From positions 1 to 51,845 of the forward strand of contig CAYHZE010000001.1 in assembly GCA_964361015.1 (NCBI GenBank): DNA of 51,845 bases, in the 5' to 3' direction. Source of the DNA: an uncultured Candidatus Saccharibacteria bacterium (GTDB taxonomy: Bacteria; Patescibacteriota; Minisyncoccia; Sungbacterales; HO2-52-23). The notes below the pieces were generated by a model. The model worked only from the letters and a program-made list of their open reading frames with translations, was not told the origin of the DNA and made no database searches. This document shows, piece by piece, positions 2,326-49,830 of this stretch. Made by a program: the position numbers and the translations under genes. Positions within the stretch are counted from its first letter, which is position 1. The number at the start of each line of letters is the position of its first letter.

Positions 2326-2478
2326 GGACTTACACACTTGGTTCCTCCCCTAAAATAGGGGAGGTTAGGAGGGGTATAGGTGAGGAATGAAACTTGCGGT
2401 CTTTAGTTTCTGCCCTCACTCCTACCACCCCTAACCCCTCCTGTGCCAGGAGGGGAAAACAGGAGGGGAAAAGGAGAT
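2326..2478 (+). repeat. Family A palindromic element, copy A1
   Basis: ggacttacaca + hairpin cctcccct-aaaat-aggggagg + ttaggaggggtataggtgagg ... ccctcactcctaccacccctaa + hairpin cccctcct-gtgcc-aggagggg. Confidence 0.9.
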
Positions 2479-2495
2479 ATAATAAATTGTGAATA

Positions 2496-3863
2496 ATGCC
2501 ATTACGATCATATACCATTCTTTTTGCAATACGCGATGCTGAATCTTTCCATTATAAGCACATACTTACCGAGCTCGCGTTTCGCGGTCATCGTGTGAGG
2601 GTTGTTTATGATACAAGATGGACTGATGAATCAGAACTTGAGAAATTAAAACAATGCACGGCTGAATATAGTCATGTTGAATATCGTGCCGCATTGCATC
2701 AAAAGGGATTGGGGAGAATTGCGCTTTTCTATGTCCGCGAGATTTTGAGTTATCGCCGATATCTTTTAATACCTCAACAATCTTCATTTTTCCGCGAGCG
2801 TTGGAAAGGATATTTGCCTGCGTTGGTTCGCAGGATTGTATCATATCAATTGGCGGAATATCTGCTTAAGAGCGGTATAACGGGAGAACTTGGGTGGATG
2901 ATTGAGCGTATGATACCTTCGAGCCGTCATGTGCGTCGTGACATTACGTTGTTTGCGCCGGATGTGATATTTGCTTCTCCTCTCACGTTGCGATTTTCTT
3001 CCACGGAAGTGGAATATGTGAAAGCCGGCATGGCACTAGGAATTCCATGCGTATCATCGGTGTTGACGTGGGACAATCTTAGCAGTAAAGGGCTTATTCA
3101 TGTGTGGCCAACATGGCTTCTGGTGTGGAATAAAGATCAGGTGCGTGAAGCCAATGAATGCCTTTTTTTTCCCCGTGAGCGCATGCGGATTGTGGGCGCC
3201 ACTATGTTTGACGATTGGTTTGAAAAATCACGAATTGCCACTGACCGAATAGTATTTTGCCGCCAGCATGGGCTTGATCCAGAGCATCCCATTGTTCTTT
3301 ATCTTGGATCGTCTCAAAGAACGGGTGATGAAACGTGGATTGTGGAACGTCTGTATCGGGCGCTTCGCAGTGCCAATGACCCCCGCCTTCAAAGAACGCA
3401 ACTTATGGTGAGGCCGCATCCCGCCAATTCCAGCCATTATAAAAAACTTAACCTTTCCGGCGTGCATGTTATTCCTCAAGAGGGCATGTTACCGATTGGC
3501 GCATCTGCATTTCAGCTTTTTTTTGACTCCATACATCATGCGGTTTGTTCTGTCATGGGGGTGGGTACAAGCGGGATACTTGATACGATGATTGCGGGGA
3601 AACCCGCTCTTGCAATTATCAGCGATGAATATAAAGAATATCAAGTACAGGCATATAATTTCCAGCATCTTCTCCGTGCCGATGCCCTTGAGACAGTTGG
3701 TACGCCGGAAGAATGTATGCCGATTATTCAAGCAATATACAATGGCAAAGATAGCAAACAGGCGAAGCGCGAAATGTTTATTCGTGATTTTGTGAGACCG
3801 CGGGGAATCGAAAAAAATGTCGGTGCTCTCATAGCAGATGAAATAGAATCTCTCGTGCGGTAA
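2496..3863 (+). CDS. Uncharacterised GT-B-like transferase, TagF/KpsS-like (paralog 1 of 3)
   Basis: 455 aa; shares the block SSVLTWDNLSSKG...IVGATMFDDW and a C-terminal layout with ORFs 39217..40647 and 40623..42002; RPHP motif; lies next to a cytidylyltransferase. Confidence 0.45.
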   Translation: MPLRSYTILFAIRDAESFHYKHILTELAFRGHRVRVVYDTRWTDESELEKLKQCTAEYSHVEYRAALHQKGLGRIALFYVREILSYRRYLLIPQQSSFFRERWKGYLPALVRRIVSYQLAEYLLKSGITGELGWMIERMIPSSRHVRRDITLFAPDVIFASPLTLRFSSTEVEYVKAGMALGIPCVSSVLTWDNLSSKGLIHVWPTWLLVWNKDQVREANECLFFPRERMRIVGATMFDDWFEKSRIATDRIVFCRQHGLDPEHPIVLYLGSSQRTGDETWIVERLYRALRSANDPRLQRTQLMVRPHPANSSHYKKLNLSGVHVIPQEGMLPIGASAFQLFFDSIHHAVCSVMGVGTSGILDTMIAGKPALAIISDEYKEYQVQAYNFQHLLRADALETVGTPEECMPIIQAIYNGKDSKQAKREMFIRDFVRPRGIEKNVGALIADEIESLVR

Positions 3864-3919
3864 TAGAGCGTGATCCATGCGCGCGATATTACCGCGTGTT
3901 CAACGTATACTAACCTTCC

Positions 3920-4426
3920 ATGAGTATTATTGAATTCAAAGATATCGCTTCTTTACGCAAAGAGCATAAAGATAAAAAAATTGTGTTTTGTTCAGGAACA
4001 TTTGATTTGACGCACGCGGGCCATGTGCTTTTTTTAGAGGACTGCAAAAAATACGGAGATCTTCTTGTGGTAGCTGTTGGCAGTGATTTTAATCAGCGGG
4101 TGCACGCAAAAGGTAAGGGGCGTCCAGTTCAAAATGAGCATCTTCGTCTGAAAATGGTCTCATCTCTCAAACCGGTTGATTACGCCCTTCTTGATATAAA
4201 TGCAAAAGATGGCGATATACTTGCTCTACTTCCGGATTTTCTTGATGCCCTCAAACCCGACGTGTATGTTGTTAATCAGGATGCATTTGATATTCCCCGA
4301 CGGCGTGAATTGATAGAAAAGTTCTCTACAGAGATGATTGTCTTGGAACGAGTATGTCCTCCTGAATTTGAAAGTATATCAACAAGCAATATGATTAAAA
4401 AAATAAAAACAGATGTGGAAAAATAA
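3920..4426 (+). CDS. Cytidylyltransferase-family protein (TagD / RfaE domain II-like)
   Basis: FCSGTFDLTHAGHVLFL carries the HxGH nucleotidyltransferase signature; 168 aa. Confidence 0.75.
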   Translation: MSIIEFKDIASLRKEHKDKKIVFCSGTFDLTHAGHVLFLEDCKKYGDLLVVAVGSDFNQRVHAKGKGRPVQNEHLRLKMVSSLKPVDYALLDINAKDGDILALLPDFLDALKPDVYVVNQDAFDIPRRRELIEKFSTEMIVLERVCPPEFESISTSNMIKKIKTDVEK

Positions 4427-4428
4427 AT

Positions 4429-4450
4429 AGACCTACTGCACAATAGGTCT
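4429..4450. repeat. 22-bp mini-palindrome resembling fused family-B termini
   Basis: agacctactgcacaataggtct. The first 11 nt equal the B5 terminus and ctgcacaata equals the B6 arm; flanked by TA on both sides if the ends are taken as gacct/aggtc. Confidence 0.5.
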
Positions 4451-4488
4451 AATAAATGAAAAAGATGAGAGGGAAGGCAGGACAATAT

Positions 4489-4524
4489 AAAAGCGCGTTT
4501 GATTTCAGAAACGCGCTTTTTTTA
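4489..4524. terminator. Bidirectional intrinsic terminator
   Basis: aaagcgcgttt-gatttcag-aaacgcgcttt, an 11-bp stem with an A-run before and a T-run after, between convergent genes. Confidence 0.8.
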
Positions 4525-4556
4525 TTTTCTCCTGTCTTCATACAGACATGTTAATG

Positions 4557-16015: not shown

Positions 16016-16175
16016 AGACCTGACTTTGTAATTATTTTTGTGCTGCAATTTCCAGATTTCGGCTGCAGCGAAGTAAAAATTTTTCAACATATACGCTGTA
16101 TATGCTTCAAAATTTTTTTAGCACCCGCTCGAAATCTGAAAATTTTGCTACAAAAATAATTACAAAGTCAGGTCT
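16016..16175 (-). repeat. Family B palindromic element, copy B2
   Basis: Perfect 26-bp arms agacctgactttgtaattatttttgt / acaaaaataattacaaagtcaggtct; conserved core; TA on both flanks. Confidence 0.92.
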
Positions 16176-16180
16176 ATTTT

Positions 16181-16618
16181 ATGATTAATGGTGTTGGCAT
16201 ATATCCGCGTCAGGTGTTTTGCAACGATCAAGGCTGTGTATATACAATGATGCAAAGGAGTGATGAATGTTTTGAACGCTTTGGCGAGGTTTATTTTTCT
16301 TATATAAAGTCGGATGTGATCAAGGGATGGAATCTTCATGCGCGCGCAGATATGAATATGGCATGCATAACAGGCACTATACAATTAGTCCTCTATGACC
16401 GAAGAGCTGATCATGCAAGCGCAGGCGCAATTCAGGAGATAATAATAGGCGAGCGCGACTATCGTCTTGTGCACATTCCTCACGGTGTCGCATTCTCATG
16501 GAAAGCGCTGGACGGACAGGGAGCGCTTATCGCAAATTGCGCAACGTTGCTCCATGACCCGAAAGAACTTACCAAGATAAGCATTACAAGTAGCGAGATA
16601 CCTTATCAATGGAAATAA
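16181..16618 (+). CDS. RmlC-like cupin (NDP-4-keto-6-deoxyhexose epimerase/isomerase-like)
   Basis: 145 aa; KGWNLHARADMNMACITGTIQLVLYDRR resembles the RmlC RGLHxQ...DVxVD region; sits among sugar-nucleotide genes. Confidence 0.55.
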   Translation: MINGVGIYPRQVFCNDQGCVYTMMQRSDECFERFGEVYFSYIKSDVIKGWNLHARADMNMACITGTIQLVLYDRRADHASAGAIQEIIIGERDYRLVHIPHGVAFSWKALDGQGALIANCATLLHDPKELTKISITSSEIPYQWK

Positions 16619-17499
16619 ACACAACGCACAAACTTGTGAGTATTGGCTTACCCACCTATTGCGGGGAAAAACGCATCGCGCGCGCGCTTGATTCATTGTG
16701 CGCGCAAACATATCCTCATATTGAAATTATTGTGTCGGATAACGCTTCAGATGACGAAACACCCACTGTATGTAAAGCATACGCAGACCGTGATTCCCGC
16801 ATTCGTTTTTTTCAACAAAAAGAGAACATAGGCAGAATGGATAATTTTCTTTTCGTGCTCTCTCGGTCCCGCGGCGATTATTTTATGTGGGCGGGCGATG
16901 ATGATACATGGGATGCGCGGTTTGTAGAAATCCTTGTTGCGGGTCTTGATTCCCATCCTGAACATGGAGTTGCGCTAAGCTCTTTTCGCCGTGAACGCGG
17001 CGATAATGCTCTATCGGAAATAATATCATTTGCCGGCATACATCAGATAACGGGTCTGTCCTATCAAGAGGTGTTTAAGAAAATGGTCATGCACGAGCCG
17101 ATTCATATTTTTTTTAGCGGCGTATGGCGGAGAGATATTGTTCAAAAACTTTTCAGCAGATCCCTTCCCGCAACAATCGCATGGGATCGGATCATGATGG
17201 CGGAAGCCGCGCTCATGACACATTTCTATTCGGCTGATCCTGTGTTATTTTATAAATATGCCAATCCCATTTCAATAAAATCGCGGCACGCAAAAGATCC
17301 GGAACACAATCGCAATAGAGCGCTGTTTGCATACGATAAGTATTTGATTGCGTTGCTTGCGCGCATAATCACCTCTCCCCTTATCCCTGCGAGGCGCAAG
17401 TTACTCGTGCCGATCCATTGGCTCGGAGCAATATGGATGCGGCGCAAAAGAATTATCGGCGTAACGCTTCGTGATATGAGGCGTCTGATGGCGGGGTAA
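16609..17499 (+). CDS. Glycosyltransferase family 2
   Basis: VSIGLPTYCGEKRIARALDSLCAQTYPHIEIIVSDNASDDET. Confidence 0.8.
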   Translation: MEINTTHKLVSIGLPTYCGEKRIARALDSLCAQTYPHIEIIVSDNASDDETPTVCKAYADRDSRIRFFQQKENIGRMDNFLFVLSRSRGDYFMWAGDDDTWDARFVEILVAGLDSHPEHGVALSSFRRERGDNALSEIISFAGIHQITGLSYQEVFKKMVMHEPIHIFFSGVWRRDIVQKLFSRSLPATIAWDRIMMAEAALMTHFYSADPVLFYKYANPISIKSRHAKDPEHNRNRALFAYDKYLIALLARIITSPLIPARRKLLVPIHWLGAIWMRRKRIIGVTLRDMRRLMAG

Positions 17500-17502
17500 A
17501 TG

Positions 17503-17516
17503 ATGCGCGTAAGTCC
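17503..17516 (+). repeat. Solo family-A right terminus
   Basis: atgcgcgtaagtcc followed by tatttga, compared with atacgtaagtcc tattga at the right end of A6; no remaining element body. Confidence 0.45.
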
Positions 17517-17572
17517 TATTTGAATTTTTTGCAGGGCACTGGTAGCATATTATGGTGACGGAATAAATATAT

Positions 17573-18619: not shown

Positions 18620-18622
18620 AGA

Positions 18623-18782
18623 GGACTTACGCATGTGATTCCTATTCCCCTCCTGATGCAGGAGGGGTTAGGGGAGGTATAGGTGAGGGATAAAACTTGC
18701 AGTATGTCATTCTTGCCCTCACTCCTTACCACCCCTAACCCCTCCTATCCTAGGAGGGGAATAAGGAGTCAAATGTGTAACG
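18623..18782 (+). repeat. Family A palindromic element, copy A2
   Basis: Same architecture as A1, but both flanking hairpins are of the cccctcct/aggagggg type. Confidence 0.9.
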
Positions 18783-18785
18783 TTT

Positions 18786-20021
18786 ATGCAAGGAATGAAA
18801 ACACAAACCAAATGTCGGATGTGCCGCAGTGAAAAGCTGGTGGAGTTTTTGAATTTAGGCATGCAGCCGCTTGCTAATTCTTTTTTGTCAAATACTGCTG
18901 GGGCCGATAATGAGCTGATGTATCCGCTACGCGTGATGTATTGTACCGTATGCAATTTATGCCAACTTGGGGAAGTAGTTGATCCTGAAATTTTATTTCG
19001 CGATTATGTTTATTTTTCTTCCGGCATGCCAAGTTCCCCTCACTATACCGCTTATGCAGCCCAAGTAGTGGCTCGATTTACCACAAGTCCGAAGGATATG
19101 GTAGTGGAAATCGGAAGCAATGACGGCCATTTACTTATGGAAATTCAGAAAAGAGACGTCAACGTATTAGGCGTGGATCCGGCGCGCAACATTGCAATGC
19201 AGGCGTGTATGAGAGGAGTTGAAACTTTGCCGGAATTTTTTTCCGAACAGCTTGCTCGCAAAATCCGTGAACAGCGCGGAGCGGCGCAAGTGATCATTGG
19301 CAACAATGTAGTCGCCCATATTGATGATCACCATGATTTGATGCGCGGGATCAAAACTCTTTTATCTGATGATGGCATATTTGTTTTTGAAGCGCCCTAT
19401 CTCGCGGATATGTTTGAGAATTTGACGTTTGACACGGTGTATCATGAACATTTGTCATATTTTTCCTTGCGTCCATTGCAAAAACTTTTTAAACAATTCG
19501 GCATGGAAATTTTTGACACGCAGGTGTTTCCGGTGCAGGGAAATTCACTGCGCGTATATGCGTGTCACATGGGCACGCGCGCGATTAAACCCGCGGTTGC
19601 GGAATTGGCAGACAAAGAAATTGATTTGGGTTTTGACAGACTCTCCTCGTATCAGAATCTCGCTCAGCGAATCGTGGAATTAAAAAATAGCGTACGCAAA
19701 ACTGTTCTGGCATTCAAACAAGAGGGTAAAAAAATTGCTTGCTATGGCGCGCCGGCAAAAGGAAACACGCTTCTTAATTATTTCGGACTGGGGGCTGATG
19801 TGTTGTTTTTTGCCACGGAAGAGTTGCCATCAAAAATCGGGTTGCTCACGCCCGGCACGCACATTCCTGTTGTGCATATCAATGATGCCCGAAAAAATCC
19901 TCCGGACTATTATTTACTTCTGGCGTGGAATTATAAAGATGTTATTCTGGCGAAAGAAAGAGCATTTCGCGCAAACGGGGGCAAGTTTATCCTACCCATA
20001 GGAGGCGAGCGGATTGTTTAA
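18786..20021 (+). CDS. NDP-hexose C-methyltransferase (TylCIII-like, Zn-ribbon + SAM MTase + C-terminal domain)
   Basis: N-terminal CRMCRSEKL...CTVCNLCQL four-Cys motif, VVEIGSNDGHL SAM motif, 411 aa three-domain layout. Confidence 0.75.
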   Translation: MQGMKTQTKCRMCRSEKLVEFLNLGMQPLANSFLSNTAGADNELMYPLRVMYCTVCNLCQLGEVVDPEILFRDYVYFSSGMPSSPHYTAYAAQVVARFTTSPKDMVVEIGSNDGHLLMEIQKRDVNVLGVDPARNIAMQACMRGVETLPEFFSEQLARKIREQRGAAQVIIGNNVVAHIDDHHDLMRGIKTLLSDDGIFVFEAPYLADMFENLTFDTVYHEHLSYFSLRPLQKLFKQFGMEIFDTQVFPVQGNSLRVYACHMGTRAIKPAVAELADKEIDLGFDRLSSYQNLAQRIVELKNSVRKTVLAFKQEGKKIACYGAPAKGNTLLNYFGLGADVLFFATEELPSKIGLLTPGTHIPVVHINDARKNPPDYYLLLAWNYKDVILAKERAFRANGGKFILPIGGERIV

Positions 20022-20025
20022 CAGA

Positions 20026-20180
20026 GGACTTTTCCGTTTAATTCCTCCCCCTAGCATAGGGGGAGGTAAGGAGGGATATGGGTGAGGCGCATAAACTTTT
20101 TCTTTAGGTTCTTGCCCTCACCTATACCACCCCTAACCCCTCCTCCATAGGAGGGGAATAAGAGTGAAATGCGTAAGTCT
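20026..20180 (+). repeat. Family A palindromic element, copy A3
   Basis: ggacttttccg ... ccctcacctataccacccctaacccctcctccataggagggg ... aaatgcgtaagtct. Confidence 0.9.
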
Positions 20181-20198
20181 TAAATATATAACGTCAAT

Positions 20199-23408: not shown

Positions 23409-23552
23409 GCTTTTGAGATGATTTTTTCAAATTTCGAGCGAAAAAGGTGATGAGGGATGAAGGCGTACTGGTTTAAGTACGCCGAATCCCGAAGAACCTT
23501 TTGTAGCCGAAATTTGGAAAAATCAGCCAAAATGTTATTGTGCAAAAGGTCT
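23391..23552 (+). repeat. B/C-superfamily palindromic element, copy B6 (intermediate between B and C)
   Basis: Arms agaccttctgcacaataa / ttattgtgcaaaaggtct; boxes atttcgagcgaaaaa and ttttgtagccgaaatt are shared with B and C. Confidence 0.85.
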
Positions 23553-25665: not shown

Positions 25666-25805
25666 TTTTCGTAGCGAAATTTTCAGATTTCGAGCGGGTG
25701 CTAGGAAAAATTTTGAAGCATATACAGCGTATATGTTGAAAAATTTTTACAAAGCCGTAGCCGAAATCTGGAAATTGTAGCAGAAAGGTTATAAGGGGAC
25801 AGGTG
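25648..25805 (+). repeat. Family B palindromic element, copy B3
   Basis: Arms agacctgtccccttataa / ttataaggggacaggtg; the core is nearly identical to B5. Confidence 0.92.
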
Positions 25806-25843
25806 TAATAAAACTTCCTCATCTTTGAAGATGTTCTAGTGAT

Positions 25844-26460: not shown

Positions 26461-26480
26461 ATTAAGAAAAGGGTCGGATT

Positions 26481-28559: not shown

Positions 28560-29672
28560 ATGGAGAGCGCAGTCAAGGTTGGCGTCGTAGGCTATGGCAT
28601 GATGGGCCGCATACACGCTCGTGCATGGTGGTCGGGTATGTCGGGGGCAAAGATTGTTGCAATCGCAGAACCGGTCCAAGAACGGCAGGATGAGGTTAGG
28701 CGAATGTATACAGGTCCTGTTTTTCCCAACATTGTGGATATGCTTGGATCTGGTCTAAGGCCCGATATCATTATTGTTGCGACTCATGTATCGCGTCATT
28801 TGAGTGATACATTGATGGCGCTTCAATCCGGGTGCCATGTTGTTTGCGAAAAGCCAATGGCGCTTACACTGGGTGAATGCGATATAATGGTTGCAGAAGC
28901 AAAGCGGCGCAATCTGAAACTCGCAGTCAATCATCAAAGCATTTTTTCTCGCGCAGTTACGGTTGCCGAGCAAAAAATTACGGCAGGCGATATTGGCGAA
29001 CTGTATGCCATCAAGGCGTATGGCAAAGGCAGAATTGCCTGTAGTGATTTGATGGAAATTGCGGGGCATCTCTTGCATCTCATGCGGTATTTTGCCAAAG
29101 GTGACGCGACGGAAATCTTTGGGGATGTCACCTATAAAGGCAAGCCCGTCACCATTGATGACGTGGTTCGTATTCAAGATTTATATTCCGAAGGCAGGGA
29201 CTCTGGATATGGCGCAGGTGATCGCATGTTTGCGTATTACAAATTCTCAAGTGGCGTGCGCGGTGAGCTGAATCTGGCGGCACTGAAAGGCGCGCCTGAT
29301 ACATTTACCGAGAAATTGGGGAACAGCAGAAATTACGGTTATTTCATTGAATTATGCGGAACTGCGGGGCGCATGCAACTCTATCTTCCTCGGGTACTTT
29401 TTTTCAATTCGTCTCCCTATGACGATTTGGCAAAAAACGCAACGCCTTGGGTTGAAGTTGATTCAAGGTTGAGAGAGGAGACGGATCCAATACTCATCAG
29501 GCGTCTCAATGAGCAGTTTCTTACTGCCATCAAGGAGGATAATGACCCCGTGGTGTCGGGAAATATTGGACGCATGGTGATGGAGATGACACTTGGAGTA
29601 TATGCCTCTCATTTGAGCAGGCGACCAGTAGCCCTTCCATTGGTAGATCGCGGGCATCCATTTAGCCGTTAG
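28560..29672 (+). CDS. Gfo/Idh/MocA-family NAD(P) oxidoreductase
   Basis: VKVGVVGYGMMGRIHARAW; CEKPMALT. Confidence 0.8.
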   Translation: MESAVKVGVVGYGMMGRIHARAWWSGMSGAKIVAIAEPVQERQDEVRRMYTGPVFPNIVDMLGSGLRPDIIIVATHVSRHLSDTLMALQSGCHVVCEKPMALTLGECDIMVAEAKRRNLKLAVNHQSIFSRAVTVAEQKITAGDIGELYAIKAYGKGRIACSDLMEIAGHLLHLMRYFAKGDATEIFGDVTYKGKPVTIDDVVRIQDLYSEGRDSGYGAGDRMFAYYKFSSGVRGELNLAALKGAPDTFTEKLGNSRNYGYFIELCGTAGRMQLYLPRVLFFNSSPYDDLAKNATPWVEVDSRLREETDPILIRRLNEQFLTAIKEDNDPVVSGNIGRMVMEMTLGVYASHLSRRPVALPLVDRGHPFSR

Positions 29673-29690
29673 ACAAATTGGTACGAGTAG

Positions 29691-29721
29691 ACCGGTAACT
29701 ATACGTTGCCGGTATTTTTTT
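29691..29721 (+). terminator. Intrinsic terminator
   Basis: accggtaac-tatac-gttgccggt (one G-U pair) followed by attttttt. Confidence 0.7.
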
Positions 29722-29749
29722 GACAGTGTCCGTTTACATAAGATATAGT
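29720..29749 (+). promoter_or_regulatory. Candidate promoter (would give a near-leaderless mRNA) for the methyltransferase at 29757
   Basis: TTGACA - 18 nt - TATAGT, ending 7 nt before the ATG. Confidence 0.3.
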
Positions 29750-29756
29750 TTACCAT

Positions 29757-30542
29757 ATGCGCAATAAAGACCTCACCTCGTTTTATAATCGCGTCTACAA
29801 AAAAGGAGAACGCGGCCATTATACCTCTATGCTGCTTTCCGGAGATAACATACCGCCGGCAAAAGCTGAAGTTCTCAAAGAGATTTTATGGAAGGGGAAA
29901 ATAGTTTTGGATGCCGGGTGCGGAACCGGGGAGTTGGCATATTTGATTGCAAAAAAAGGAGCCCAACGCGTGATTGGGGTGGATTACTCGCAAGAGGCGA
30001 TCGCGGCGGCAAAAAAAACATACCAGTTGCCGAATGTGGAGTTTATCTGCGATGATATTGCCGGTATCAAAGGCAAGTTTGATGTTATCGCTACGCTTGG
30101 CACCATTGAGCACACCGATGACCCTTTAAGCGCTTTGAAGCATTTGAAGAGTATGCTTACACAGAAAGGGTCTCTGATTGTGACATGTCCGAATTGGGTC
30201 AATCCATGGGGATACATGCTCCTTACACTCAAACATCTTTTTGATGCCAAAATTACGTTAGCGGATATTCATTTTTTAACGCCGCTTGAATTTCAGGCGT
30301 GGGCGAAAAAATTGGGCATGAAATTACAATGGAAAACAGTTGAGCATGAATGGGCGCATGGGGAAAAATGTATCAGTGATTTTGAGCGGCGTCTGCCCAA
30401 TGTGGCGCGCGACTCAAGCCTTCCGACTGATATCAAGAAAATTCTTAAGCACATCAATTGGCTTGAAACTCACATGGTAACCATTGAACAAAACACGAAG
30501 TACGGAGGAGCGGTGGGACTTTATCATTTTAAGCGGGTGTGA
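29757..30542 (+). CDS. Class I SAM-dependent methyltransferase
   Basis: VLDAGCGTGELAYLIA motif I. Confidence 0.8.
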   Translation: MRNKDLTSFYNRVYKKGERGHYTSMLLSGDNIPPAKAEVLKEILWKGKIVLDAGCGTGELAYLIAKKGAQRVIGVDYSQEAIAAAKKTYQLPNVEFICDDIAGIKGKFDVIATLGTIEHTDDPLSALKHLKSMLTQKGSLIVTCPNWVNPWGYMLLTLKHLFDAKITLADIHFLTPLEFQAWAKKLGMKLQWKTVEHEWAHGEKCISDFERRLPNVARDSSLPTDIKKILKHINWLETHMVTIEQNTKYGGAVGLYHFKRV

Positions 30543-30593
30543 TATATTTTTTTGCGACCCTTGAAAGAGAAAAAGATACGTGTATGTTAAGGT

Positions 30594-30618
30594 AAAAGGC
30601 TCTTTGGAGCCTTTTTTC
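30594..30618 (+). terminator. Intrinsic terminator
   Basis: aaaggctc-tttg-gagccttt followed by a T-run. Confidence 0.7.
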
Positions 30619-30656
30619 TTTGAAACATTAGATACTGTTTTTATGTTATAATACGC

Positions 30657-31325
30657 ATGAAAACAGTGATTTTGGCGGGTGGATTTGGCACACGACTTGC
30701 GCATATTTCCGGTGGTAAGCCAAAGCCTCTTATGGAAGTTGCGGGCAAGCCGATTCTTGAGCGGCAAGTTAATTTTCTTTTATCTCACGGCATGGACGAT
30801 ATCCGTTTGAGTCTGCATCATAAAGCGGATCATATTATCGCGTTTTGCGAATCAAAGTGGCCGAAACAATTTGAATATGTCGTGGAGCCAACTGCCTTGG
30901 GAACCGGCGGCGGCATACGTTTTGCAAGCAAAGATTTACACGATCCTTTTTTAGTGGTCAACGGGGATATTTTAAGCGATATTAATGTGACTGAATTTGT
31001 GTCTGCAATACCCAATGCGATTGTAGGCGCATATCAAAAAGATGCCAGGGCCTACGGACTACTTGATATAAGAAACGGAAAAATTGCCGCGTTTCGGGAA
31101 AAGCCAATAGAGGAATGCAGTGGATATATTAATGCAGGTTTTTATTTTTTGTATCCGGATGCGTTTTCGCATATACGCACGGCTTCGTTTATGATAGAAA
31201 AAGAAATTTTTCCGCAGCTTGCCGAATCAGGAAAACTTAATGTATTTACGCATGACGGTTATTGGATTGATTGTGGCACGGAAGAACGGCTTAAACAGGC
31301 GCATGAGGATCATAAAGAAAAATAA
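30657..31325 (+). CDS. Sugar-1-phosphate nucleotidyltransferase (HddC/ManC/RmlA-like)
   Basis: MKTVILAGGFGTRLAHISGGKPKPLMEVAGKPILERQV. Confidence 0.85.
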   Translation: MKTVILAGGFGTRLAHISGGKPKPLMEVAGKPILERQVNFLLSHGMDDIRLSLHHKADHIIAFCESKWPKQFEYVVEPTALGTGGGIRFASKDLHDPFLVVNGDILSDINVTEFVSAIPNAIVGAYQKDARAYGLLDIRNGKIAAFREKPIEECSGYINAGFYFLYPDAFSHIRTASFMIEKEIFPQLAESGKLNVFTHDGYWIDCGTEERLKQAHEDHKEK

Positions 31326-31332
31326 GTATTAT

Positions 31333-31606
31333 TTTTTGCATTTAATTCCTCCCCTAGCATAGGGGAGGCGAGGTGTGGGTATAAAGTGATGGATAAAACT
31401 TGCGGTCTGTGGTTCCTGCCCTCACCCATACCACCCCTAACCCCTCCTGCATCAGGAGGGGAAAGATGAACTATCCTGTTCCTCCCCTAGCATAGGGGAG
31501 GTTAGGAGGGGTATAGGTGAGGATTGGAACATGGAGTTTGTGCCCTCACCCATACCACCCCTAATCACTCCTTTATCAGGAGGGGAATAAGAGATGCAGA
31601 CGTAAA
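31333..31606 (+). repeat. Family A palindromic elements, tandem dimer (A4a + A4b)
   Basis: Two complete hairpin1 / long-stem / hairpin2 units head to tail, with unit 2 starting near 31478; the outer termini are degenerate. Confidence 0.85.
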
Positions 31607-31616
31607 GATTCTCAAT

Positions 31617-32345
31617 ATGATTAAACCCCGCCATGTTCTCGAAAAAGAATTTTTTACCCATGTGCCAAAAGCGCGGAAAATAAATCCGATTTATCGAGGA
31701 TTTTTTGATATAAATTATAAAGCGCATGAGGCGGCGCGCCCGGGGAAAAAACTTTTGAATATCTACGCCTCATGGGATTTGTCGGGCGAGCGCGAAGATT
31801 TTTATCGTGAAAAATTCTATAACGAATGCGATTATACGGCGATTGATTACAAAGATGACGGTTTTATTGATCTAAAAAATCTCCACAAGCCGCGTCATCA
31901 ACTGCCATTTCAGGATGCGTCATTTGATATTATTGTGACCACCAAGTATATTATGGAACATATCTCCGAACCTGAAGCAGTGGTGAGAGAATTTCGGCGC
32001 GTGTTAAAATCCGGAGGGCAAGTGTTTGCCATCGTCCCGCACATCAGGCGCCAACATCAGCCGCCGTGGGATTTTTACCGTTATACCGAGTATGCGTTGC
32101 GTTATTTATTTACCAAAGCGGGATTCGGCGAGATAGAACTTATCCCGACAAACGGATTTATGGGAGTGGTGGGATATTACGCTTATTTTTTTCAACGGGG
32201 ACTTGGCGCGCCCAAATGGATTGAGCGATGTTTTGACTTCCTGCATTATTGGATGATTGAACCGATTTGTTATGCGTTAGATAGATTAGATAACGGATAT
32301 GGCCGCGACATGACGCTTTATTTTTTAATTAGGGCAAAGGTATAA
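31617..32345 (+). CDS. SAM-dependent methyltransferase (Methyltransf_11-like)
   Basis: FDIIVTTKYIMEHISEPEAVVREFRRVLKSGGQVF. The ORF-track start at 31524 lies inside repeat A4; in-frame ATG 31617 is preferred. Confidence 0.7.
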   Translation: MIKPRHVLEKEFFTHVPKARKINPIYRGFFDINYKAHEAARPGKKLLNIYASWDLSGEREDFYREKFYNECDYTAIDYKDDGFIDLKNLHKPRHQLPFQDASFDIIVTTKYIMEHISEPEAVVREFRRVLKSGGQVFAIVPHIRRQHQPPWDFYRYTEYALRYLFTKAGFGEIELIPTNGFMGVVGYYAYFFQRGLGAPKWIERCFDFLHYWMIEPICYALDRLDNGYGRDMTLYFLIRAKV

Positions 32346-32349
32346 ATTC

Positions 32350-34068
32350 ATGCCTCACAAACTCTCCAATCTTTTTATAGGTCCCAATGACAAAATTAAA
32401 ACCGTGCTTGAACGGATTTCTTCGCTTAAATCAACAAGTCCGCATCTTCCGCCCGGCGTTGTTTTGGTAGTGGGCGCGGACCACAAACTTTTAGGGATCG
32501 TCACCAATGGTGATATCCGGCGCGCGTTTGCCGCGGGAATAACGGTGGATCAACCGATTTCCAAAGCAATGAATAAAAATCCTTCTGTCATTGAACAGAT
32601 AGATCAGGGTGGCGATCTTCTCCCGTTGATTTTTAATAAAATGAAAGAGGGCAAGTGGCCCAAGGATCGCATGGAAAGGATTCTTGTAGTGGATAATAAG
32701 CGCCGCGTGGTGGACATGGTTTCGTTCTATGACTTGGTCCGGCATAGCGATGCGCGCTTCAAACATATTGCAGTCGTAGGTCTCGGATATGTCGGGCTTA
32801 CGCTCGGACTCACACTCGCGGATCTCGGATTTAAGGTAAAAGCATTTGATGTCAATAAGGCGGTCATGGATTCCGTCAAGCGCGCAAAACCGCATTTTTA
32901 TGAGCAAGGTTTGGATCGTTTGCTCAACGACCATCTTAATAAAAATTTTTTGCTTGTAAATAATTTTGAGGGCGAGAATAATGCCGATGTTTATTTTGTT
33001 GCCGTAGGCACACCGCTTGATGCCAACTCCAAGCCAAGCCTTCATTATCTTGAAAAAGCGGTTGCTCATATTGGCGGCGTTCTCAAGCACGGCGATACGG
33101 TAGTTTTGCGTTCCACCGTACCGCTTGGCACCACGCGTAATTGCGTGATTCCGATCTTAGAAAAAGAATCCGGCATGAGGGCCGGGGATGATTTTTTGGT
33201 TGCATTCGCCCCGGAGCGCACAATTGAAGGAAAAGCGCTTGAAGAACTGCGCAAGTTGCCGCAAGTGATTGGAGGCATCAGCCATGCAAGCTGTGATTTA
33301 GTGGCAAGCATTTTTAATTTTATGTCAAACTCTACTATTCTAGTGGATTCTCTTGAAGCGGCAGAAATGGTAAAGCTTGTGAATAATACTTATCGCGACG
33401 TGACATTTGCATTTGCCAATGAAGTTGCGTTGATATCGCGACAGTGGGGAATTGACACCAAGCAGGTGATTGAGGCGGCAAACTATGGCTATGAGCGCGG
33501 CCGCGTGCCGATGCCAAGCCCCGGCGTGGGCGGTTACTGTCTTGAGAAAGACCCGTTTATTTTTATTGAGAGCGCCAAGCTTAAAGGATATGAGCCTTTG
33601 CTTGCCCGTGACGCAAGGCAGGTGAGTAACGCGATGGTTGATTTTGTCGCAGATGATATTATTTCTTTTTTGAAACAAGAGAAAGCGAGCGTAAAAAATC
33701 CGAAAATCGCTCTGTTGGGTTTTGCGTTCAAAGGCAAGCCGGTGACATCTGATGTACGTGGTTCTACTACGGTGATACTGACGAAGAAATTACAGCAGTC
33801 AGGGTATACAAATATCCACGGATATGACGCGGCGGCGCGGCGCGAAGATATTGTGATACACAAGGTGAAGCATACGCCAAAAGTGGAGCAAGGATTTAAG
33901 GATGCCGATGCGGTGGTAGTAATGAATAATCATTTGGATTTTGAAACGCTTGACATTCGCGGACTTCTCGCAAAAGCGAAAAATCCCGTACTTTTTTTTG
34001 ATACATGGTCGCTCTACGATGCCGATGAAGTCAAGAAGGTAAAGGGAGTGCAATATCGGAGGATATAA
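32350..34068 (+). CDS. CBS-pair domain fused to a UDP-glucose/GDP-mannose dehydrogenase-family NDP-sugar dehydrogenase
   Basis: N-terminal LLGIVTNGDIRRAF and RVVDMVSFYDL CBS-like repeats; then IAVVGLGYVGLTLG Rossmann motif and the GGYCLEKD catalytic-Cys motif. Confidence 0.85.
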   Translation: MPHKLSNLFIGPNDKIKTVLERISSLKSTSPHLPPGVVLVVGADHKLLGIVTNGDIRRAFAAGITVDQPISKAMNKNPSVIEQIDQGGDLLPLIFNKMKEGKWPKDRMERILVVDNKRRVVDMVSFYDLVRHSDARFKHIAVVGLGYVGLTLGLTLADLGFKVKAFDVNKAVMDSVKRAKPHFYEQGLDRLLNDHLNKNFLLVNNFEGENNADVYFVAVGTPLDANSKPSLHYLEKAVAHIGGVLKHGDTVVLRSTVPLGTTRNCVIPILEKESGMRAGDDFLVAFAPERTIEGKALEELRKLPQVIGGISHASCDLVASIFNFMSNSTILVDSLEAAEMVKLVNNTYRDVTFAFANEVALISRQWGIDTKQVIEAANYGYERGRVPMPSPGVGGYCLEKDPFIFIESAKLKGYEPLLARDARQVSNAMVDFVADDIISFLKQEKASVKNPKIALLGFAFKGKPVTSDVRGSTTVILTKKLQQSGYTNIHGYDAAARREDIVIHKVKHTPKVEQGFKDADAVVVMNNHLDFETLDIRGLLAKAKNPVLFFDTWSLYDADEVKKVKGVQYRRI

Positions 34069-38521: not shown

Positions 38522-38547
38522 GGGGGGGTTAGTTGTTTTTTAAAAGT

Positions 38548-38697
38548 GACTTACGCATTTTGGTTCCTCCCCTATTCTAGGGGAGGTTAGGAGGGGTATA
38601 GGTGAGGGATAGAACCTACGCTATATTGTTTTTTTCCTCACCCATACCTCCCCTAACCCCTCCTATACTAGGAGGGGAAAAGGAGATGCGTAAGTCC
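38548..38697 (+). repeat. Family A palindromic element, copy A5 (best preserved)
   Basis: Perfect termini gacttacgcat / atgcgtaagtc enclosing hairpin1, the long stem and hairpin2; 150 bp. Confidence 0.92.
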
Positions 38698-38742
38698 TCA
38701 AAAGGTCTTAAAGATTTTTTTGTATCACTTATCATATATATT

Positions 38743-43373: not shown

Positions 43374-44138
43374 ATGTATATGAAAAAATATCATACAGCA
43401 TTTAGCGGACTTCATTCGGATATTGAAAAGAATTTACAGCAGGGTTTGCTTAGTCTTTTAAAAGAATCTCCAATCCCTGATACGGAATTCATTGCCAATC
43501 TGCCTCTTTTTTTGCGGCGCCAGGATATAGCGCGGATTTTATTTATGGATTACTTATATAGGGAAATGATCGGAGTCCATGGGGTGATCGCCGAATTCGG
43601 TATTAGGTGGGGGAGAAATCTTCCCCTTTTGGAATCACTGCGCGGTATTTACGAGCCTTACAATTATAATCGTAAAATTTTAGGATTTGATACATTTCAA
43701 GGATTTCCCAATACTTCGGAAAAAGACGGAAAAGCAAAAATTATCGCTACCGGGACGCTTGCGGTGAGTGACGGGTATGATGCTTATTTAGGGCGCATTA
43801 TGGATCATCATGAAAGCGGGAATCCGGTTTCTCATATTAAAAAATATGAGCTGGTAAAAGGAGACGCAAGTATAAGCATAAAAAAATATCTTAAGGATCA
43901 CCCGGAGACCATCTTTGCGTTCGCATATTTTGATTTTGATTTATATGAACCGACAAAAAACGTGCTGAAAGCAATTAAGGGACATCTGACCAAAGGGAGC
44001 GTGATTGCATTTGACGAAGTAAATCATAAAGATTTTCCCGGCGAGACGCTCGCATTAAAAGAAGTCTTGGGCCTTGATACTTATCATTTGTGCCATAATC
44101 CTTATGGATCGGCGCAATCATATTTGGTTATTGAATAG
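43374..44138 (+). CDS. TylF/MycF-like (macrocin-O-methyltransferase family) methyltransferase
   Basis: VIAEFGIRWGRNL...GFDTFQGFP...FAYFDFDLYEPTK...GSVIAFDE; the stop TAG overlaps the first bases of repeat B5. Confidence 0.6.
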   Translation: MYMKKYHTAFSGLHSDIEKNLQQGLLSLLKESPIPDTEFIANLPLFLRRQDIARILFMDYLYREMIGVHGVIAEFGIRWGRNLPLLESLRGIYEPYNYNRKILGFDTFQGFPNTSEKDGKAKIIATGTLAVSDGYDAYLGRIMDHHESGNPVSHIKKYELVKGDASISIKKYLKDHPETIFAFAYFDFDLYEPTKNVLKAIKGHLTKGSVIAFDEVNHKDFPGETLALKEVLGLDTYHLCHNPYGSAQSYLVIE

Positions 44139-44295
44139 ACCTACTGCGTAATTATTTTTGTAGCGAAATTTTCAGATTTCGAGCGAGGCGCAGGAAAAAT
44201 TTTGAAGCATATACAGCGTATATGTTGAAAAATTTTTACAAAGCCGTAGCCGAAATCTGGAAATTGCAGCACAAAAATAATTACGCAGTAGGTCT
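44137..44295 (+). repeat. Family B palindromic element, copy B5
   Basis: Perfect 25-bp arms agacctactgcgtaattatttttgt / acaaaaataattacgcagtaggtct; TA flanks. Confidence 0.92.
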
Positions 44296-44306
44296 ATTAA
44301 CATCAA

Positions 44307-45056: not shown

Positions 45057-45060
45057 TGGA

Positions 45061-45210
45061 GAACTTTCGTGTTTGATACCTCTCCTATTCTAGGGGAGGT
45101 TGGGAGGGGTATGAGTGAGGGATATCAACTTTTTCTTTAGGTTCTATCCCTGACCCATACCACCCCTAACCCCTCCTAAGATAGGAGGGGAAAGGGAAAT
45201 ACGTAAGTCC
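45061..45210 (+). repeat. Family A palindromic element, copy A6
   Basis: Degenerate left terminus gaactttcgtg; right terminus atacgtaagtcc; conserved internal stems. Confidence 0.88.
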
Positions 45211-45219
45211 TATTGATTC

Positions 45220-48161: not shown

Positions 48162-48163
48162 CT

Positions 48164-48397
48164 ATGAAAACAGTTGAAGAAGTAATTGCTCATGTCCTTC
48201 ACATTGATCCTTCCGGTATCACTGACGCGAGCAGTCCGAACGACATAGAGAACTGGGATTCGTTTAACGGACTTCTTTTGGTTACTGAACTTGAAAAGAC
48301 ATTTAACGTATCTTTTAGTCTTGATGAGATCGTGGTGGTAAAAAATGTCGGCGATATTAAATCAGCTTTGAAAAAACATGGCATCAAAATCCCCTAA
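48164..48397 (+). CDS. Acyl carrier protein
   Basis: 77 aa; NWDSFNGLLLVTELE contains the DS(L/F) phosphopantetheine attachment motif. Confidence 0.8.
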   Translation: MKTVEEVIAHVLHIDPSGITDASSPNDIENWDSFNGLLLVTELEKTFNVSFSLDEIVVVKNVGDIKSALKKHGIKIP

Positions 48398-48821
48398 TCT
48401 TCCGCTTCATTCTTTTTCGTTCAAAGATATTCAGATAGGGGATACCTATTCTTTTGAGCGTTTTATTGATGATGAATTGGTCAAATCTTTTGCAGACATG
48501 AGCGGTGATTACAATCCGCTTCATATGGACGAGATATATGCGGCCCGTACCCAATTTGGCGGGCGCGTAGCTCATGGTATGCTTTCAGCAAGTTTTTTTT
48601 CAGCGCTTGTCGGCATGTTGTGTCCCGGTTCTCACTGTCTTTATCTTTCGCAAGACGTGCGCTTTAAGAAGCCGATCTTTCTTAATACGCGAGTGGTAGT
48701 CAAAGGAACGGTTACTGAAAAATCGGATGCAGTCAACATAATTTTTTTGCGGACCCTCGTATTGGATAAAGACGGTGTTGTTGTGGTTGAAGGCGAGGCA
48801 AAGGTAACCGTAATGACATAG
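48378..48821 (+). CDS. MaoC-like (R)-specific hydratase/dehydratase (hot-dog fold)
   Basis: SGDYNPLHMDEIYAARTQFGGRVAHGML. Confidence 0.8.
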   Translation: MASKSPNLPLHSFSFKDIQIGDTYSFERFIDDELVKSFADMSGDYNPLHMDEIYAARTQFGGRVAHGMLSASFFSALVGMLCPGSHCLYLSQDVRFKKPIFLNTRVVVKGTVTEKSDAVNIIFLRTLVLDKDGVVVVEGEAKVTVMT

Positions 48822-48825
48822 GAAT

Positions 48826-49524
48826 ATGAATAGATTTGACAAAAAAGTTATTTTAATACTCGGAGGCACCGGTGCAATCGGATCTTCTATTGCCGACCAT
48901 CTTGAACAAGAGGGCGGTATTGCCATTCGGCATGGAAGAAGTGGAGCATACGCATGGGATATTGAGAAAGGGGAAGATGCGGGCGTGTTTGTGGAAAAAA
49001 TAATCAAAGATTTTGGAAAAATAGACGGGGTGGTAAATTCACTTTCTTGCCCCATACGGATCGGCAATTTTGAAAAGAAAAGTTGGCAGGATTTTCTAGG
49101 GCATCTCAATGTGCAGTTGAAGGCCGCAGTTGAAATCGAAGGGAGTGTTATTGTTCATATGAAAAAACAGGGAAAGGGAAAGATCGTGCATGTGATAACC
49201 TCATACGCGATTGCCCTACCTCCTCCGGGCATTTCCGAATATATAACGGCAAAGTACGCGATGTGGGGGTTGACCAAGGCATTGGCAAGAGAGCTGGGGC
49301 GTCATCATATTACCGTCAATGCGGTATCGCCCGGGTTTATAAAAAATAAATTCAGTTCCATTGCTCCCGAAAAACTCATTGATATCATCACTGCCGAAAC
49401 TCCGCTTGGGCGCTTGACTACCGAAAAAGATGTGGCGCATGCGGTATTATTTCTTCTATCTGAAGACGCGGATCATATCACAGGAGAAAATATAAACATT
49501 TCCGGGGGGCAGACGATGGAATAA
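48826..49524 (+). CDS. Short-chain dehydrogenase/reductase (FabG-like)
   Basis: VILILGGTGAIGSSIA; YITAKYAMWGLTKALA (YxxxK); NAVSPGFI. Confidence 0.8.
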   Translation: MNRFDKKVILILGGTGAIGSSIADHLEQEGGIAIRHGRSGAYAWDIEKGEDAGVFVEKIIKDFGKIDGVVNSLSCPIRIGNFEKKSWQDFLGHLNVQLKAAVEIEGSVIVHMKKQGKGKIVHVITSYAIALPPPGISEYITAKYAMWGLTKALARELGRHHITVNAVSPGFIKNKFSSIAPEKLIDIITAETPLGRLTTEKDVAHAVLFLLSEDADHITGENINISGGQTME

Positions 49525-49527
49525 TAT

Positions 49528-49658
49528 GAGACTGTAGAAGAATGCCCAGAAGTTGTCATTGCGAGGAGCAGTAGTGACGAAGCAATCTCTCTCTCGGCGT
49601 TATAGATTGCTTCGCTACGCTCGCAATGACACCGTGGGAGATATTCTTCTACAGTCTC
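49528..49658. mobile_element. Family D MITE-like element, copy D-c
   Basis: TIR gagactgtagaagaat / attcttctacagtctc; core gtcattgcgagg...gcaatctctctctcgg...agattgcttcg...ctcgcaatgac; flanked by AATAT on both sides. Confidence 0.88.
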
Positions 49659-49665
49659 AATATGA

Positions 49666-49830
49666 GGACTTACGCATTTAGTTTTAGTTTTAGTTCCTCC
49701 CCTAGAATAGGGGAGGGTAGGAGGGGTATGTGTGTGGGGGATATCAATTTTTTCTTTAGGTTTTGCCCTCACCTTCTATCACCCCTAACCTCGCTCCTAT
49801 TTTATGAAGAGAAAAAGAAGTCAAGCGCAT
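49666..49830 (+). repeat. Family A palindromic element, copy A7 (right half degenerate)
   Basis: ggacttacgcat + hairpin1 + long stem; hairpin2 and the right terminus are eroded; starts 8 bp after D-c. Confidence 0.8.

Follow-up and report, generated by a model that had tools for sequence, protein, structure and literature searches.

Why do the spacers of a densely packed gene cluster hold eight copies of one folded repeat, all pointing the way the genes point? The question arises in the 51,845-nt stretch of contig CAYHZE010000001.1 analysed here (the window; 51.8 kb), where G+C content stays at 42–46%, the + strand is coding almost from end to end and GC skew is everywhere positive. Its genes form a large cluster for the synthesis of sugar nucleotides and glycans, with epimerases/dehydratases, glycosyltransferases, C- and O-methyltransferases, nucleotidyltransferases and NeuB. 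The original prediction had described the repeat, family A, as a palindromic element that on a polycistronic mRNA might serve operon expression rather than being only selfish DNA. Our analysis shifts the emphasis: family A is probably a high-copy, lineage-specific, non-coding mobile element resembling a MITE (a miniature transposable element with inverted repeats), that is, tolerated selfish DNA whose orientation matters for co-transcription, and not a dedicated regulator based on Shine-Dalgarno pairing. It has moved, often in the form of tandem dimers, into the very short AT-rich gaps that separate genes, and its conserved shape would be a single-stranded-DNA structure used in mobilisation. 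The enzyme, which we did not find, would act in trans and could be either a DDE transposase working on the terminal repeats or a DUF559-type nuclease working on the internal modules. Selection would then filter the insertions, so that in tight operons only the sense orientation survives.

Copy number, mobility and fold of family A

Scanning metagenome contigs with a family-A-specific pattern gave 54 contigs, which with the window make 55 sequences (L numbers below denote sampled contigs and loci). A hidden Markov model (HMM) search of these 55 sequences found 126 copies or fragments, 89 of them at least 110 nt long. Nearly all 54 contigs are named Hain-H14, Hain-H41 or Hain-H51, with 01um or 02um, which we take to denote Hainich groundwater wells and 0.1- or 0.2-µm filter fractions. 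One Hainich contig, L168, is 99.9% identical to window 29507–33314, so the window organism was present in the Hainich sample; this contig is the one tie between window and sample. The host was placed through a single protein, the GroEL of the family-A-bearing contig L131 (which also encodes UvrA), and not through window genes. That GroEL shares 98% identity with a 'Patescibacteria group bacterium' protein and ~78% with Candidatus Sungbacteria proteins, and the host is by this marker an uncultured groundwater member of Patescibacteria. The sole family A copies outside the Hainich data lie at 155–298 of L132 and L146 (JGI Ga0105164, Ga0209824), which are identical to each other and carry the copy directly upstream of a tRNA gene.

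Family A is mobile, because close relatives are without it and orthologous empty sites exist. The spacer occupied by a copy at L131:2186–2347 is empty at the orthologous position in L155 (85–88% identical flanks), L174 and L176. Relatives at 90% GroEL identity have 0 copies and 0 of the modules described below, each in an unbiased 21-kb stretch around GroEL; a relative at 93% GroEL identity has 2 copies in 15.8 kb, one of them at a junction that is empty in L131. L177 carries a copy between uvrA and the next gene, and L131 is without that copy.

The best-preserved ends read GGACTTACGC[A/G]TTT...AAA[C/T]GCGTAAGTCC with TA on either side, and their terminal inverted repeats of 12–18 nt are perfect in the best copies (A5 of the window; L169). 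Across the 126 copies, 23 left and 26 right termini are recognisable, and 10 copies have both. TA adjoins 30 of 61 termini, compared with a background of 6%; the only empty site is too diverged to read. Tandem dimers or trimers occupy 28 of the 94 insertion loci, their units joined by a 15–20-nt linker that carries no terminal repeat. The first 12 nt of family A (AGGACTTACGCA) are also found at the end of the Planktothrix element ISPlag1 (IS701 group), which we treat as a lead and not as a demonstrated relationship. Separately, L169:142–202 holds a 61-nt mini element in which a single hairpin 1, lacking its tail, sits between an 18-nt terminal repeat and the inverted copy of that repeat, with TA on the outside of each; being a perfect palindrome of the left end only, it suggests hairpin-mediated rearrangement.

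A full unit (~125–175 nt) is non-coding, with no open reading frame (ORF) and stops in most frames. Its core is a pair of inverted modules, hairpin 1 (H1) and hairpin 2 (H2), whose G-rich tails face inward around a central stem, and this stem forms by pairing of the tails together with a family-specific extension (GGTATAGGTGAGGG / CCCTCACCCATACC). In the window, H1 reads CCTCCCCT-loop-AGGGGAGG-TTA-GGAGGGG, a module on the + strand, and H2 reads CC[A/T]CCCC-TAA-CCCCTCCT-loop-AGGAGGGG, a module on the − strand. The minimum-free-energy fold is the same in kind for RNA and DNA, a terminal-repeat stem enclosing H1, the long stem and H2, and is far better than that of dinucleotide shuffles (RNA z-scores of −9.4 for A5, −6.9 for A6 and −3.7 for A1; DNA z-score of −7.9 for A5). 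The predicted structured and asymmetric repeat family is thereby borne out. The nested architecture ascribed to all copies holds as an overall fold, although terminal repeats occur in only some copies and H2 of A7 has decayed.

RNAalifold, run on a MAFFT alignment of 80 copies, returned H2 alone because the alignment is gappy; the A5 fold was projected onto the alignment and its pairs were counted instead. The H1 and H2 stems are 92–97% paired over the 80 copies and almost invariant, with compensatory change at the loop-closing pairs only (H1, AU 44 and GC 13; H2, AU 37, GC 15 and CG 9). Overall covariation is modest, at 0.099 compared with 0.087 in shuffles and 0.055–0.064 in slid controls. 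That stems are kept while loops and centres vary is therefore right for the hairpins, but the long stem is imperfect: its outer part (GGAGGGG against CC[A/T]CCCC) has fixed mismatches in every copy. In some copies a variant block, GGAGCGAGG, occupies the position of the H1 tail, and in others its complement, CCTCGCTCC, occupies the pyrimidine arm of H2 (examples at L126:5316–5472, L131:1169–1323 and window 49789–49798); the pattern suggests possible exchange or template switching between modules.

Within the window, an HMM of the family A copies (nhmmer) finds exactly eight units, all on the + strand (2325–2471, 18622–18783, 20025–20181, 31333–31469, 31473–31603, 38547–38698, 45060–45211 and 49665–49835), and a repeat search recovers the family as D1–D4, families with 6–7 members that cover the element. 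All eight copies and the solo end of the original prediction are thus present, as is its A2 with two hairpins of the same type. The units make up 2.3% of the window, with a mean column identity of 68%. The terminal motif GGACTTACGCAT has 6 matches in the window at no more than 1 mismatch, compared with 0.2 expected, and none of 100 shuffles reached as many. Every copy is flanked by two + strand ORFs. The distance from the upstream stop is 2–25 nt (140 nt for A7), and 2–44 nt remain to the next start, which agrees with the predicted position just upstream of a gene. A left terminal repeat within 2 mismatches is present in A1, A2, A5 and A7, and a right one in A3, A5 and A6. The copies are as follows (Y, pyrimidine; R, purine):

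A1, 2326–2471, + strand: between ORFs 1387–2322 (epimerase/dehydratase family) and 2496–3863; left terminal repeat GGACTTACACAC at 2326–2337 with TA before it, right terminal repeat absent; H1 with Y arm 2344–2351, R arm 2357–2364, TTA and tail GGAGGGG 2368–2374; H2 with tail CCACCCC 2425–2431, TAA, Y arm 2435–2442 and R arm 2448–2455.
Solo right terminus ATGCGCGTAAGTCC, 17503–17517, + strand: TA after it; repeat family D13.
A2, 18621–18785, + strand: perfect left terminal repeat GAGGACTTACGCAT at 18621–18634, right one decayed; H1 at 18647–18667 with switched arms CCCCTCCT/AGGAGGGG and tail switched to GGGGAGG; H2 with tail 18729–18735, Y arm 18739–18746 and R arm 18752–18759.
A3, 20024–20181, + strand: left terminal repeat decayed, right one ATGCGTAAGTCT at 20169–20180 with TA after it; H1 CCTCCCCCT/AGGGGGAGG from 20044; H2 with tail 20127–20133, Y arm 20137–20144 and R arm 20149–20156.
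A4a, 31333–31469, + strand: first unit of a tandem dimer; H1 31348–31368, tail variant GGTGTGGG at 31372–31379, H2 31431–31461.
A4b, 31473–31603, + strand: second unit of the dimer, reached across a ~19-nt linker without terminal repeat; H1 31481–31501, tail 31505–31511; H2 31555–31585 with mutated Y arm TCACTCCT.
A5, 38546–38699, + strand: the most complete copy; terminal repeats at 38547–38558 (left) and 38686–38697 (right); H1 with Y arm 38566–38573, loop, R arm 38579–38586, TTA and tail 38590–38596; central stem-loop 38597–38646; H2 with tail CCTCCCC 38647–38653, TAA, Y arm 38657–38664 and R arm 38670–38677.
A6, 45059–45212, + strand: left terminal repeat decayed, right one ATACGTAAGTCC at 45199–45210 with TA after it; H1 45079–45099, tail 45103–45109; H2 with tail 45160–45166, Y arm 45170–45177 and R arm 45183–45190.
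A7, 49664–49838, + strand: perfect left terminal repeat at 49664–49677, followed by an extra (TTTAG)n spacer, right one decayed; H1 49696–49716, tail 49720–49726; H2 decayed, with Y arm CCTCGCTCCT at 49789–49798 and R arm ATGAAGAG at 49804–49811.

Just before the solo terminus, GGCGGGGTAAATG resembles the end of H2 and holds the stop of the glycosyltransferase-2 gene 16609–17499; over window 17486–17520, the last codons and stop of this gene lie in an apparent remnant of the element's right end (GGCGGGGTAAATGATGCGCGTAAGTCC followed by TA). At window 18621–20181, the C-methyltransferase gene 18786–20021 is bracketed by a perfect left terminal repeat (A2) and a good right one (A3), and the inner ends of both copies are decayed, an arrangement that is like a composite transposon and may be coincidental.

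The window also has other intergenic repeats. A second family of ~150–170 nt (D5/D7/D9) lies at 1171–1334, 16036–16179, 25640–25811, 26320–26463 and 44129–44300, and also at 23503–23552. Its copy at 25647–25807 is 88.8% identical to L176:5307–5467, from a relative without family A, and matches L176 in both orientations, so this family is palindromic. A 171-nt direct repeat, D6, occurs with 93% identity at both window ends (1–171 and 51191–51361), with a shorter third copy (D10) at 23421–23461; all its copies are in intergenic spacers.

A mirror-tailed module and its DUF559 neighbours

One genome per GTDB species was searched with the pattern CCCCTAACCCCTCCT N5-7 AGGAGGGG, taken from the most conserved part of the hairpins. 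At least 118 loci carry it, in Bacteroidota, Pseudomonadota, Patescibacteria, Nitrospirota, Poribacteria, Acidobacteriota and others; hosts among the matches listed include Pontibacter, Hymenobacter, Prevotella, Acinetobacter, Methylococcaceae, Thiomargarita, Abditibacteriota and many Patescibacteria. What these loci have in common is a module of ~36 nt and not the 150-nt element: neither the family A terminal repeat nor its stem extension was found in any of the at least 118 module loci listed. On its G-rich strand the module comprises an 8–9-bp pyrimidine/purine hairpin, a 3-nt linker (mostly TTA or TTG) and a 7–8-nt G-rich tail. This tail mirrors the purine arm and does not complement it, so that GGAGGGG is followed by GGGG[T/A]GG, GGGGAGG by GG[A/T]GGGG, GGGGGAG by GAGGGGG and GAGAGGG by GGGTGAG. 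By crude ORF calls, 23 of 127 modules lie within ORFs; single generic modules sit in frame within coding sequence in L043 (Candidatus Uhrbacteria, ~1452–1479, in a tRNA 2-thiouridylase-like ORF) and also in L007, L020 and L022.

The mirror rule was assessed on 135 hairpins in the listed loci, none of which matches the search pattern. A perfect 7/7 mirror tail is present in 67% of them, compared with 8.5% for permuted pairings (maximum of 18% in 1000 permutations), and asymmetric arms follow the mirror rule in 63% of cases and a direct repeat in 12%. Opposite A, the third base is A in 87 triads, T in 64 and C or G in 5; opposite G, it is G in 582 of 593. The symmetry covaries across at least 25 distinct arm sequences, with a linker that is nearly always 3 nt. 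This arm/tail pairing is the code expected of an antiparallel purine-motif triple helix.

Family A keeps the same rule, with 7/7 mirrors in 38+2+1 H1 modules and in 67 of 70 H2 modules (tails GGGG[T/A]GG). The rule is kept even in A2, where switched H1 arms come with the switched tail GGGGAGG. It also accounts for the imperfect long stem: the H1 and H2 tails each keep to the mirror of their own arm and so are not mutually complementary, and since the mismatches are fixed while the mirror is kept, the mirror rule overrides Watson–Crick pairing. Constraint on structure is clear, and a DNA-level fold of hairpins and mirror tails accounts for it no less well than an RNA fold does.

Repeats of this kind in E. 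coli, called BoxC, have been known since the 1990s (Bachellier) and as potential intrastrand triplex (PIT) elements since Hoyne and Maher 2000. The PIT elements of Hoyne and Maher are the E. coli BoxC repeats and correspond to the TMECO class (PMC4666352). Judged by its predicted triplex, the H1/H2 module belongs to this BoxC/PIT/TMECO class of class II purine-motif intrastrand triplexes.

A first sign of an associated gene came from small ORFs that end exactly in a module. An ORF of the DUF559 family (Pfam PF04480, E ≤ 1e-30) is present at 9 of the at least 118 module loci listed (L001, L006, L025, L059, L069, L071, L078, L087 and L108). All nine ORFs (~370–520 nt) have perfect-mirror modules on both sides within a few tens of nt, and in most of these brackets the tails point inward, the same topology as H1...H2 of family A. 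For a reverse test free of the bias of the module search, a DUF559 protein was run against plasmid records with tblastn and 12 diverse matches were taken (L180–L191). Perfect-mirror modules lie within ~150 nt of the DUF559 ORF in 8 of the 12, and in 5 they flank it on either side, forming inverted repeats whose loops are reverse-complementary; arm sequences vary by taxon and the mirror rule is always obeyed. Several of the DUF559 genes are wedged into conserved operons (sufB–sufC in Sphingomonas, paaD–paaZ in Deinococcus). In E. coli K-12, a TMECO lies 168 nt downstream of the DUF559 gene ycjD (within NC_000913.3:1349000–1353500, here L179: TMECO 2206–2240, ycjD 2408–2761), with a chance of ~0.002 given 23 TMECOs in 4.6 Mb. 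The DUF559/YcjD protein is predicted to be a Vsr-like PD-(D/E)XK nuclease, and its only solved structure, 3HRL, is an unannotated 'endonuclease-like protein'. Neither ycjD nor DUF559 nor an endonuclease is mentioned in Holder et al. 2015 (PMC4666352), and among the listed papers that mention DUF559 or YcjD, none links them to these repeats, judging by title. The association suggests a candidate DUF559 cassette, a grouping proposed here and not an established family; family A has its bracketing architecture, tails inward, without the DUF559 ORF.

The alternative that survives best is that a DUF559 nuclease recognising the hairpin plus tail moves both the triplex modules and the family A core, as RAYTs move REP/REPIN units. 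Family A would then be a gene-less derivative of the cassette, with the GGACTTACGC repeats as a secondary shell. In addition to the nine bracketed ORFs, the reverse test and the neighbour of ycjD, it is consistent with the lack of terminal repeats in the majority of family A copies and at every internal dimer junction. We nevertheless consider it rather doubtful, as no DUF559 gene accompanies family A (see below), nuclease activity is only predicted, tails point outward in Deinococcus, and the TA-flanked terminal repeats of family A point to a DDE transposase; the gene may also home into modules or use them as regulatory or terminator elements. A broader reading, which we put forward tentatively, is that the modules (BoxC/PIT/TMECO, H1/H2) may be the ends of unrecognised cross-phylum small mobile elements. 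Their autonomous form would be a 110–150-codon DUF559 (Vsr-like) gene between inverted modules, with family A and the E. coli TMECO pairs as non-autonomous forms, as REPINs are to RAYTs, and the nuclease would recognise the triplex-capable single-stranded DNA fold. Were this true, DUF559 would gain a function and a repeat enigmatic for decades would be explained.

Orientation inside operons

For position and orientation, genes were simple longest-ORF calls made with elements masked. Full copies lie outside any spanning open frame in 84 of 86 cases. At co-directional junctions, the element begins a median of 12 nt past the stop and ends a median of 20 nt before the next start; 6 junctions are convergent and 1 divergent. 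The co-directional loci have 42 sense and 7 antisense copies (binomial p = 3.6e-7), and the bias remains when the window and its duplicate are left out (34 vs 7, p = 2.5e-5), so that the shared polarity of elements and genes described for the window holds beyond it; counting loci with one flanking gene gives 72 vs 17. Antisense copies sit in longer residual spacers than sense copies (median 317 nt, minimum 64, for the 7 loci vs median 53 nt; Mann–Whitney p = 0.0013), and wherever the residual spacer is shorter than 60 nt (22 junctions), the element is in sense. At the 12 loci where contig GC skew opposes gene direction, the element follows the genes in 10, which ties its polarity to genes and not to the replication strand, with the reservation that GC skew is noisy on contigs of 2–14 kb. 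Since copies are biased to sense, antisense copies occur only in long spacers and the element follows genes over skew, some constraint linked to co-transcription is likely.

The same figures would be expected of a functional element of polycistronic mRNA, a four-way RNA fold kept for its benefit to operon expression as a stabiliser, processing site or translational insulator. The very stable predicted RNA fold also speaks for such a role, as do stems that are kept while loops vary and the covarying loop-closing pairs. Yet sense and antisense RNAs of 86 copies fold equally well (mean difference of −0.8 kcal/mol; Wilcoxon p = 0.21), and there is thus no G–U signature of selection on an RNA fold. 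The tails, which override Watson–Crick pairing in the long stem, follow a purine-motif triplex code, and purine-motif triplexes form in DNA, not RNA (PMC4666352). Close relatives and orthologous junctions do without the element, so the operons work without it. Single generic modules in other phyla are unbiased with respect to gene direction (25 vs 21), and E. coli PIT elements have neither promoter nor terminator activity (PMC4666352). Taken with a host that makes no use of Shine-Dalgarno pairing, these points leave an mRNA role improbable: of the operon role first proposed, the orientation constraint tied to genes stands, while tolerated selfish DNA is the favoured account.

The original prediction had also read the G- and C-rich strings as paired Shine-Dalgarno and anti-Shine-Dalgarno sequences. 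Among 240 gene starts (window and L120–L173), a Shine-Dalgarno-like 4-mer (GGAG, GAGG or AGGA) is found at −20 to −4 in 13.8%, compared with 11.7% of random 17-mers, and the leaders upstream of genes in the window and contigs are A/T-rich. By this measure the host does not initiate translation through Shine-Dalgarno pairing. With usage near random the reading fails, and the strings are explained by the cross-phylum mirror (triplex) rule. Supply or sequestration of a Shine-Dalgarno sequence by the element is likewise ruled out by host usage. As for an intrinsic terminator or outward promoter, scans of A2, A3 and A5 found no promoter-like or terminator-like signal inside these elements, with promoter-like matches only outside, and both were rejected.

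A further alternative ascribes the orientation bias to replication: single-strand-specific transposition (as in IS200/IS605 or REP/RAYT) orients insertions by the fork, and genes are merely co-oriented. The element is a hairpin stack of the kind that single-strand transposases use, and the window cannot separate the two directions because all its flanking genes are on the + strand and its GC skew is positive throughout. We regard this as very unlikely, as the element follows genes at 10 of the 12 skew-discordant loci, both orientations occur on one contig with the same gene direction (L122, L126, L130, L131 and L150), antisense copies differ in spacer length as replication does not predict, and neither a GTAG-type REP head nor a Y1 transposase was seen. 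It is hardly tenable that family A is an ordinary palindromic repeat of the REP/BIME or Correia/ERIC type whose mirror symmetry is a by-product of G/A and C/T low complexity: those families too are small, intergenic, palindromic in fold, high in copy number and found in pairs, but the mirror covaries over at least 25 arm sequences well above permutations or direct repeats, the linker is almost always 3 nt, A is opposed by A or T only, and mismatches in the long stem are tolerated so that the mirror stays. G-quadruplex or i-motif formation by the G/C tracts is a further possibility, though one that leaves unexplained why the single A/T position of the tail tracks the A of the arm.

Some observations weigh against a MITE-like mobile element filtered by orientation. 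Terminal repeats are recognisable in about a fifth of copies (20–25%), many ends being decayed, and the flanking TA, which is palindromic, may belong to the repeat instead of being a target duplication. No transposase gene was found between the same termini in ~270 kb of sampled contigs, where pairs of termini containing an ORF are chance or composite cases, nor did the window, the Hainich contigs or the relatives' loci (~350 kb of the host lineage) yield a DUF559 gene. The triplex is read from symmetry alone, its E. coli counterpart having been seen in vitro and not in vivo. The contigs were chosen for carrying the element, and the strong sense bias, for which no molecular cause was identified, would also fit a beneficial RNA role.

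Several aspects are new. A BoxC-class module is packaged as a mobile, high-copy element bounded by terminal repeats in a groundwater bacterium with a tiny genome; inside the operons of an organism without Shine-Dalgarno usage, orientation follows a strict rule; and the association of module and DUF559 is reproducible from cyanobacteria to E. coli. This association makes two questions directly testable, namely what moves BoxC-type repeats and what DUF559 does. Family A moreover fills most of the intercistronic space of the glycan cluster, and repeats of this sort will mislead gene callers, assemblers and screens for RNA motifs when candidate-phyla genomes are analysed.

Comparison with known repeat classes

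Whether family A matches a described family has a divided answer. Over the whole window, Rfam gave 0 matches at the gathering threshold, with sub-threshold matches to microRNA precursors (generic long hairpins) on A5 only, and a BLAST search with A5 against annotated plasmids and phages found no match. The building block, in turn, matches the described BoxC/PIT/TMECO class. The original prediction had named random orientation and position, or a match to a described family, as findings that would count against it: the module class was indeed already described and the element behaves as a mobile one, while its orientation and intergenic position are not random.

The TMECO consensus is CCCTCNCCC N3-6 GGGNGAGGG N3 GGGNGAGGG, with TTA or CCG as second loop; these repeats are always intergenic, show no strand bias and are not associated with transposons (PMC4666352). 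E. coli has 23 of them per 4.6 Mb, including five inverted pairs of type A and type B, and their single-stranded DNA forms a stable triplex in vitro that was undetected in vivo (PMC4666352). They have no promoter or terminator activity and are associated with local genome instability (PMC4666352). Family A has the same succession on one strand of pyrimidine arm, 3–7-nt loop, purine arm, 3-nt second loop and G-rich mirror block; its TTA second loop is that of TMECO type A, and the triads G.G-C, A.A-T and T.A-T are common to both. Both are intergenic and multi-copy, with loops less conserved than stems, and both form inverted pairs of two slightly different types (A and B in E. coli, H1 and H2 here). 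The sequences differ (CCCCTCCT/AGGAGGGG/GGGGTGG with 7–8 triads in family A, CCCTCNCCC/GGGNGAGGG with 9 in TMECO), and the window modules (CCTCCCCT/AGGGGAGG/GGAGGGG and CCCCTCCT/AGGAGGGG/GGGGTGG) fall outside the strict TMECO consensus. Unlike TMECO, family A builds the pair into a longer unit that also has a stem extension and a variable centre, and sometimes TA-flanked terminal repeats. It is strongly sense-biased, whereas TMECO/PIT elements are reported without orientation bias, and its density is ~1 per 6 kb compared with 23 per 4.6 Mb.

Bacterial MITEs are defined as non-autonomous derivatives of insertion sequences (PMC4666352, introduction). Family A resembles them in being shorter than 200 bp and non-coding, in the terminal inverted repeats of some copies, in its AT-rich intergenic targets and stable fold, and in its many diverged copies, presence/absence polymorphism and insertion inside operons without splitting genes. 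It departs from typical MITEs in that no partner insertion sequence was found and its tandem dimers are joined without terminal repeats. Its interior, moreover, consists of paired triplex modules, also free-standing in many phyla, rather than of a deleted transposase gene.

REP/REPIN units are structured sequences of ~35 nt that occur singly or as inverted pairs in a long hairpin, in species-specific families with a GTAG head and an associated Y1 (HUH) RAYT transposase. The likeness to the REP/REPIN–RAYT system lies in a putative autonomous form with a small nuclease gene between inverted units, here DUF559. Unlike REP, the module carries a mirror tail and is nearly identical in sequence across phyla; no GTAG head is present in the family A alignments, and no Y1 transposase gene was noticed in the sampled loci, which come from an incomplete genome. 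With Rickettsia palindromic elements the likeness is limited to the in-frame coding insertions of some single modules, family A itself lying in genes in 2 of 86 cases. Compared with all these classes, family A is a new, composite mobile variant made from a building block that was already known.

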